DNA of 54,383 nucleotides, filler included, from Squatina squatina (Eukaryota): NCBI GenBank assembly GCA_031763465.1. It is 3 parts of 3 records of this genome, joined end to end, with 100 filler letters (N's around TTAATTAATTAA, not from the genome) between each part and the next. Parts side by side here need not be neighbours in the genome. Positions count along the whole stretch, not along the records: positions 29,214 to 54,383 come from JARFOE010000234.1; 2 more parts are not named here. The stretch is one strand, 5' to 3'. The position numbers and the translations under genes were made by a program. Positions 38,282 to 38,716 of this stretch are shown here, in pieces; the first letter of the stretch is position 1; every line of letters begins with the position of its first letter. The notes beneath the pieces were generated by a model. It was not told where the DNA came from and made no database searches. It saw nothing but the letters and a program-made list of their open reading frames with translations.

Positions 38282-38468
38282 CCGGTTCCCGAAGCATTTC
38301 TGCATTGCCGTTAGCTGTGCCAGTTGAGCTCCTTTACCACCCACCATGGCAGCACATTGGCACGCCTCATCGGTGAATGCCAACACCAACTTGGAGCAGG
38401 CTGGCACCACAGGTTCCTGGAACTTTCCAGCCGGTATGAAGTCTGGGGCCTGTCGGCCGCTTTCATTT
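38282..38468 (-). CDS. Internal exon B of the same gene; start of the PPDK/PEP synthase N-terminal ATP-grasp domain
   Basis: Acceptor catatttccctttggttag| and donor CGG|gtaggt; 187 nt = 1+62 codons: (R)NESGRQAPDFIPAGKFQEPVVPACSKLVLAFTDEACQCAAMVGGKGAQLAQLTAMQKCFGNR. VGGKGAQLAQL matches the VGGKGANLGEL signature of PEP synthase/PPDK/RPH/PigC proteins. Lies within track ORF 38174..38497. Confidence 0.88.
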
Positions 38469-38559
38469 CTAACCAAAGGGAAATATGAAGCATTCAAAAG
38501 TGGTTTATTATGTTGGCAAGAAAAACATGCACATCTTTTGTTTGACAGAAATAACTCAC
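38469..38559 (-). other. 91-nt GT-AG spliceosomal intron (phase 2) between exons A and B
   Basis: Begins gtgagt, ends with pyrimidine tract ttccctttggttag; phases of both flanking exons agree. Confidence 0.85.
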
Positions 38560-38716
38560 CTGTAATAAAGTTGAATTAAGCCGCAACCTCGGGTAGTTAG
38601 GTTCAAACGATAGTTGGCCACACAGCCATAAGTTTTGCCTTCCCAGCCAAATCCACTGTAAAGCACTGGGCAAGCACTCTTGTCAGGTGTTACTGTCAGA
38701 TTAAAGTCTGTTCCAT
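38560..38716 (-). CDS. Internal exon A of a spliced PEP synthase/PPDK-family (rifampicin phosphotransferase/PigC-like) gene; region just N-terminal to the ATP-grasp domain
   Basis: Minus strand acceptor tttttgcctgttatag| and donor TACAG|gtgagt; 157 nt = 2+51 codons+2, open: (D)GTDFNLTVTPDKSACPVLYSGFGWEGKTYGCVANYRLNLTTRGCGLIQLYY(R). Its terminal AG joins the first A of the next exon to give AGA (Arg) in frame. Not in the ORF track. Confidence 0.85.

Follow-up and report, generated by a model that had tools for sequence, protein, structure and literature searches.

Two exons in the window, the 54,383-nucleotide stretch (filler included) of Squatina squatina DNA analysed here, belong to a gene that is real, vertically inherited within vertebrates and already auto-annotated. 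Domain and residue comparisons, together with a structural model, suggest that the products of this animal family combine a membrane anchor and a barrel related to 25-phosphosteroid lyase (25-PSL) with a dikinase of the rifampicin phosphotransferase (RPH) type. They would likely phosphorylate a lipid-soluble alcohol, which intact copies would eliminate to an alkene, and paralogue B would stop at the phosphate ester; we hold this overall reading tentatively, with confidence a little short of even. The features of the gene in the window, all on the minus strand, are as follows:

38560..38716, minus strand: exon 1, 157 nt; last strands of the DUF7065/DUF7064 barrel (25-phosphosteroid-lyase-like, AttH-fold), of paralogue-B type
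38625..38627, minus strand: Gly codon in exon 1, at the position of Glu410 of paralogue A, itself aligned to Glu333 of 25-PSL
38571..38573, minus strand: Gln codon in exon 1, at the position of Glu428 in paralogue A, tetrapods and bacteria, aligned to Glu350 of 25-PSL
38469..38559, minus strand: intron, 91 nt, GT-AG, phase 2
38282..38468, minus strand: exon 2, 187 nt; linker, then start of the RPH-type ATP-grasp domain
38333..38335, minus strand: Lys codon of VGGKG in exon 2, aligned to Lys22 of Listeria RPH

Splicing joins the exons into a frame that is open over 114 codons, with exon 1 corresponding to residues 381-432 and exon 2 to residues 432-494 of P0004, the Heterodontus orthologue. In a tblastn search of the window this protein aligns without gaps to both exons, with 88% and 84% identity respectively (E=2e-53). 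The intron runs from the donor GTGAGT to a pyrimidine-rich acceptor ending in TTAG, and the outer splice sites of the pair read TATAG ahead of exon 1 and GTAGGT after exon 2. The original prediction of two exons with canonical splice sites, matching phase and an uninterrupted peptide was thereby borne out, the peptide that it quoted being present. Several database proteins break or deviate at these boundaries: one at the acceptor of exon 1 (P0005), a group at its donor (P0027, P0272, P0279 and proteins from frogs) and one where exon 2 ends (P0018). The pair is confirmed as real exons of a chondrichthyan gene rather than a chance match.

Exon 2, used as a query for longer proteins, gave 18 matches among 29 candidates, all from a shark, ray or chimaera, 67-85% identical to it and mostly about 1350 aa long. 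Their records are named 'rifampicin phosphotransferase-like' or 'putative phosphoenolpyruvate synthase', in keeping with the earlier suspicion that homologues had already been auto-annotated. In these orthologues a hydrophobic N-terminal helix, predicted from its hydrophobicity to be a membrane anchor, is followed by about 340 residues of beta structure, the PPDK_N domain (residues 472-789), the Rph_4th domain and a C-terminal PEP-utilizers domain, the last of these being the His-swivel domain that had been expected at the C-terminus. The PPDK_N match that had been anticipated was found in full-length orthologues (1e-72); the exons alone match no Pfam family because they include just about 20 residues of that domain. 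The stretch ahead of the VGGKG motif, which had been put at 90 residues or more, amounts to about 460 residues in the orthologues. Literature searches, several of them loose in scope, found neither papers on the animal family nor the lyase-dikinase fusion reading, though the report of the 25-PSL structure may already name eukaryotic homologues.

The scaffold context of the exons is fragmentary. The window comprises 47 contigs with 46 gaps, 22 of which are 100 N, and the contig bearing the exons is 2037 bp in length. Searches with tblastn and a family profile recovered no further exon of the gene from the 46.5 kb of called bases in the window, which holds 114 of about 1360 codons; a weak match at 53469-53311 was rejected as an additional exon on account of its position on the wrong side of the gene, its 32% identity and its E-value of 0.05-0.4. 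This lack of companions, together with a lone ZNF143/ZNF76-like exon piece 13 kb away on the same strand, would fit the reading that the pair is an isolated piece of paralogue B, orphaned or left from a pseudogene, within a patchwork scaffold, and that it gives rise to no protein in the animal. We regard this as improbable, given that the pair shows no stop or frameshift, has four canonical splice sites and is 84-88% identical to an intact orthologue, and that with 47 small contigs and 22 unsized gaps the absence of other exons is to be expected. A contaminant or parasite origin of the contig, against which the original prediction had also argued, was rejected on account of shark-specific best matches and of repeats that recur on other contigs in the window.

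Certain other features of the window were also observed. The flanks 39886-39909 and 40010-40033 overlap by 24 bp, the only one of the 46 gaps to do so, which suggests a genuine adjacency for the contig upstream of exon 1. The exon-like piece mentioned above, at 25122-25190 on the minus strand, has an AG acceptor, encodes a V-x-L-E-D-G-T-T-A-Y-I-H-H stretch and ends at a gap; it presumably resembles the N-terminal repeats of ZNF143/ZNF76, and it gave no Pfam match, nor was a second piece of such a gene found in the window. Interspersed repeats at 38821-39117 and 37913-37991 have further copies within the window, and others lie at 24198-24431 and 29284-29706, which gave no Pfam match and which we take to be LINE fragments. 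An Rfam search found no match, and a Pfam search with twelve other ORFs of the window found no family.

The kinase half shows the architecture of RPH. A profile of 32 homologues aligns end to end with Listeria RPH (E=4e-131), and the orthologues have the superfamily order of RPH-type enzymes, that is ATP-grasp, acceptor domain and C-terminal His swivel, with the window covering the ATP-grasp start. In the parts of the RPH report cited here, the catalytic set is given as K22, R117, T136, R666, E667, K670 and H825, Lys22 is needed for activity, AMP and Pi are released, and pyruvate is not a substrate (PMC4844700). Across the 81 homologues taken as full-length (1100 aa or more, two that looked chimeric being dropped), the equivalents of K22, R117, T136 and R666 are kept in 79, 79, 73 and 77 proteins, and those of E667, K670 and H825 in 79, 78 and 71. 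The lysine of the VGGKG motif in the window is the K22 equivalent, and paralogue B (P0004, P0017) retains the whole set.

The tested RPH catalytic residues being all conserved, a true PEP synthase or PPDK serving gluconeogenesis, as the second of the above record names would have it, is left with a vanishingly small probability. The PEP-utilizers C-terminal domain is absent, the His domain stands last instead of centrally, the TIGR01418 model is matched at 293-307 bits against a cut-off of 740, and pyruvate is not used by RPH, as far as the cited sections of its report go (PMC4844700). The earlier placement in the PEP synthase/PPDK family accordingly holds at the superfamily level only, as a pyruvate-binding domain is lacking and the His domain lies at the C-terminus. 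The curated equivalog cut-offs for RPH, PigC, RedH and PEP synthase are all missed by a wide margin, with the shark proteins reaching 350-366 bits on the model of rifamycin-inactivating RPH (NF041857, cut-off 999) and 303-330 bits on those of PigC and RedH (cut-offs 1300 and 1350). PigC acts by condensation of a phosphorylated substrate, and a ligase of the PigC/RedH type, joining such a substrate to a second molecule, would share the domain order of the animal proteins and the NCBIfam matches at 300-330 bits. Since these scores lie far under the cut-offs and below those of the RPH-type models, we consider such a ligase highly improbable.

Atlas, Pfam and NCBIfam all pointed to DUF7065/DUF7064/Rv3169 for the N-terminal domain. 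The Pfam cut-off for DUF7064/DUF7065 is exceeded by the chicken protein and by five of six invertebrate stand-alone forms, with the shark proteins falling below it (E 4e-4 at best); a barrel profile built from animals only finds bacterial members at E-values down to 3e-24 (hhalign 98.5%). In a profile search of the PDB, 25-PSL was the only match in the barrel region, and a weak one (E 0.015, or 0.034 with a barrel-only profile). Single-sequence searches of the PDB with barrel proteins did not find 25-PSL; the relationship was recovered only by profiles and by a model. The latter, built with AlphaFold from 129 sequences (pLDDT 89.7), represents the barrel-only orthologue from chicken, and not the window's protein; a single-sequence fold of P0005 (pLDDT 34) was set aside. 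Foldseek searches with the chicken model placed 25-PSL at ranks 1-5 (E 1e-12), with AttH, Fsa2 and kievitone hydratase further down. The model has the AttH double-barrel fold and superimposes on 25-PSL with an rmsd of 4.0 over 274 residues. The VIA Z scores are 24.2 for AttH NE1406, 22.9 for Fsa2, 22.2 each for kievitone hydratase and CghA, and 21.7 for 25-PSL, which has the highest identity of the six AttH-fold matches (20% against 7-12% for the others). As AttH NE1406 and Fsa2 score above 25-PSL and kievitone hydratase is level with it, the fold by itself does not fix the chemistry.

In the weak profile alignment (E 0.034), D32, Y35, Q149 and R175-D176 of 25-PSL align to D117, Y120, Q272 and R296-D297 of paralogue A, and R182, E333 and E350 to R303, E410 and E428; equivalents of D32, D176, R182, E333 and E350 are thus present in paralogue A, as far as this alignment goes. 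The catalytic Asp of 25-PSL would be D176, judging from the deposited D176N variant, whose structure has phosphate and the alkene product bound (PDB: 9g4c). The residue after the Asp is Arg in 25-PSL and His in the animal proteins. D297 is found in 10 of 10 paralogue A, 28 of 29 stand-alone invertebrate and 21 of 21 bacterial sequences, and in none of four paralogue B sequences. These features also bear on a reversed order of reactions, in which the barrel would hydrate or cyclise a prenyl-type alkene in the manner of kievitone hydratase or CrtC, and the dikinase would trap the resulting tertiary alcohol as a phosphate. The shared fold with kievitone hydratase (Z 22.2), the tocopherol-cyclase-like clusters that the Atlas lists at 0.94 and the pull that AMP-forming energetics would exert on the reaction favour such an order. 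The identity of 10% to the hydratase as against 20% to 25-PSL, and the basic residues near the Asp (R296, H/K/R298, R303), which would suit phosphate binding, speak against it, and we consider it quite unlikely.

The link between barrel and kinase recurs in other organisms. Of 301 alphaproteobacterial genomes sampled, 19 contain DUF7064, with 30 loci in total, or 29 with the seed genome left out. At least 11 of these 29 loci have an APH kinase no more than 2 kb away, against 0.37 expected under uniform placement (150 of the 193 APH matches being listed). For the SnoaL_4 control the corresponding figure, counted by eye among the matches listed, is 4 of 150, and a fold-matched control, PF07143, gave no match in the 19 genomes. 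Five more DUF7064 loci, from two similar genomes, form part of a gene row that also has a small His-swivel ORF and a PPDK-like gene; at 13 of the 29 loci no kinase was found nearby among the matches listed, one partial match aside. Two regions, L028:407-10009 (G117) and L029:2803-13098 (G276), show two or three DUF7064 paralogues, a stand-alone His-swivel ORF, an unassigned ORF of about 490 aa, a PPDK-like gene of divergent sequence and a fusion of reductase and EthD, all in one orientation. A 489-aa ORF beside the bacterial swivel gene was rejected as an RPH acceptor domain, as it is not detectably one. In the diplonemid Artemidia motanka, P0167 fuses an EcKL/APH kinase to the same barrel. 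Rv3168 is taken to be an APH kinase. It forms an operon with Rv3169, according to the part of the source cited (PMC5340868).

Elasmobranchs possess two paralogues, A and B, and in Heterodontus and Pristis each pair lies on contigs of equal size. On sequence grounds the window's copy is paralogue B: exon 1 groups with the B clade (UFBoot 99), differs from the A state at all 11 diagnostic sites, and is identical to Heterodontus B at 45 of 51 residues and to A at 28 of 51. The tree does not settle the branching order of A, B and the chimaera proteins. Paralogue A has D297, R303 and E428 in 10 of 10 sequences; with more sequences covered, position 410 is Glu in 14 of 15 A sequences and position 428 is Glu in 15 of 15, against Gln in all four B sequences with letters there. 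Paralogue B has S297, W303, H120 and Q428, with N or D (mostly N) at 117 and G, N or A but never E at 410, and so lacks the 25-PSL residue set. The window itself displays G410 and Q428, both losses falling in exon 1. From these residues paralogue B would probably be kinase-only, its barrel being without the lyase residues. Within the acceptor domain (residues 851-990) A and B are 34-36% identical, as against 66-86% between orthologues. As a separate observation, residues 451-650 of P0004 contain 2 A/B-diagnostic sites in 200 residues, where other parts have 2-22 per 50, and the A and B clades are not recovered in trees of this segment; gene conversion may have affected the start of the ATP-grasp, window exon 2 included.

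A representative search for the family returned 787 proteins at E<=0.001, of which the best 150 were listed and 30 clusters were looked up. Among the matches listed, fusions are found in a flatworm, molluscs, a priapulid, arthropods, echinoderms, a tunicate, turtles, an alligator and protist-like records, with a partial annelid record joining barrel and ATP-grasp; barrel-only genes are found in a hemichordate, a nemertean, molluscs, a crustacean, a nematode, butterflies, frogs and birds. Teleosts, squamates, lampreys and mammals were not named among the matches listed or the clusters looked up, which does not imply absence from these groups. The inferred vertebrate member of an animal RPH-type family has orthologues in sharks, rays and chimaera and fused relatives in several invertebrates. 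On the choice left by the original prediction between vertical retention and horizontal transfer, the trees support vertical inheritance within vertebrates, whose barrels form a single clade (UFBoot 100) with birds nested with crocodilians; a shark-specific horizontal transfer was rejected on this basis.

Birds and frogs have a conserved anchor-plus-barrel protein of about 415 aa without the kinase half (chicken P0221 = LOC776594; P0250-P0292). Here Ser replaces Asp297 in 42 of 44 sequences, the others being one Asn and one unaligned, and the retention of the barrel alone points to a kinase-independent role in these animals. Several turtles have truncated or degenerate kinase halves, and in Pelodiscus Arg stands in place of His. 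In an invertebrate clade of stand-alone barrels (P0044, P0056, P0069, P0085, P0089, P0101) the motif is nearly invariant, with the Asp in 28 of 29; in arthropod-clade barrels, those of the arthropod fusions, it is mostly lost. The lyase step might run in trans.

Against a coupling of the two activities stands the count that 45 of the 81 full-length homologues keep the kinase core without the D-R-E lyase triad, both being kept in 23 and neither in 12. The two halves might be uncoupled, with the dikinase conjugating dietary or xenobiotic phenols and alcohols, in the manner of RPH or Bacillus YvkC, and the barrel serving mainly in lipid binding or in a reaction of its own. Barrel-only genes persist in frogs, birds and invertebrates, and the rapid divergence of the acceptor domain noted above is likewise in line with such a role. 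Conversely, all of the 25-PSL-like residues have been retained from the bacterial barrels through to paralogue A, and the barrel has been linked repeatedly to three unrelated kinase types; we rate uncoupled halves as unlikely.

Returning to a coupled phosphorylation and elimination, the N-terminal helix would anchor the protein with its domains on the cytosolic face, as its hydrophobicity suggests. By analogy with RPH, for which both steps have been shown, the ATP-grasp would move the beta-phosphate of ATP to the C-terminal His with release of AMP and Pi, and the swivel would carry the phosphate to a hydroxyl at the R-E-x-x-K site; the residues involved in the first step are conserved here. 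Our guess for the acceptor is a hindered alcohol, either a sterol or an isoprenoid. Elimination of the phosphate by the barrel would follow in paralogue A and in the mollusc, echinoderm and flatworm copies; in paralogue B the barrel would only bind or present the lipid, with the diverged acceptor domain implying another substrate. In the sections cited, dehydration of 25-hydroxysteroids takes a kinase plus a lyase (PMC11061730, PMC8449060, PMC7411048), and tertiary steroid phosphates are made from ATP with a Keq of 0.34 (PMC8449060); with such a constant, an AMP-forming dikinase would suit them. In its most specific form, which is possible but distinctly doubtful, the proposal is that animals including sharks have a single-chain, membrane-anchored dehydratase, driven by ATP-to-AMP conversion, that would use a phosphohistidine relay to turn hydroxylated sterols or isoprenoids (e.g. 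25-hydroxysterols) back into alkenes. A duplication in sharks and rays would have given rise to A, a dehydratase, and to B, a kinase that makes lipid phosphates and is the gene in the window, and frogs and birds would have kept the barrel only.

The sources cited, in the parts used here, describe ATP-dependent dehydration via a phosphoester from an anaerobic bacterium, with two proteins (PMC11061730, PMC8449060, PMC7411048). If the proposal is true, animal lipid metabolism would include a component that has gone unrecognised, namely the fused version found in flatworms, molluscs, echinoderms and sharks. Vertebrates would then also own a phosphohistidine swivel enzyme, one that databases mislabel as a gene for antibiotic resistance or PEP synthase. 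An intact A, a lyase-altered B and a tetrapod barrel-only form make up a natural series, which together with the residues named above makes the hypothesis directly testable.

Compared with known systems, the bacterial DUF7065+DUF7064 or Rv3169-like proteins (PF23213, PF23212, NF053593) have the same R-D-[HKR]-S-W-G-x-R motif, but are stand-alone and uncharacterised, and usually lie beside an APH kinase instead of being fused to an RPH-type enzyme. The AttH-fold enzymes NE1406, kievitone hydratase and the Diels-Alderases Fsa2, Phm7 and CghA have the double-barrel fold in common with the animal barrel (Z 22-24) at 7-12% identity, and none of them is known to have a kinase partner. The prodiginine ligases PigC and RedH have an RPH-like domain order but no barrel, and the animal proteins score about a quarter of their cut-offs. 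Listeria monocytogenes RPH (PDB: 5fbs, 5hv1; PMC4844700) shares the order of ATP-grasp, acceptor domain and C-terminal His swivel, to which the animal proteins add a 460-residue anchor plus barrel; its acceptor pocket aligns poorly, the animal proteins having Glu in the Gln336/337 region. The 25-hydroxysteroid kinase and 25-PSL of Sterolibacterium denitrificans (PDB: 9fzn, 9g2i, 9g4c) have in common with paralogue A the barrel fold and the polar residues, and with the animal family the logic of phosphorylating and then eliminating, as proposed here for animals. According to the cited parts of the reports, the bacterial system consists of two separate soluble proteins and converts ATP mainly to ADP (PMC8449060, PMC11061730, PMC7411048). 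The animal protein, at 16-20% identity, is in contrast one chain, predicted to be membrane-anchored and to carry an AMP-forming swivel dikinase, and its paralogue B is without the residues aligned to those of 25-PSL.
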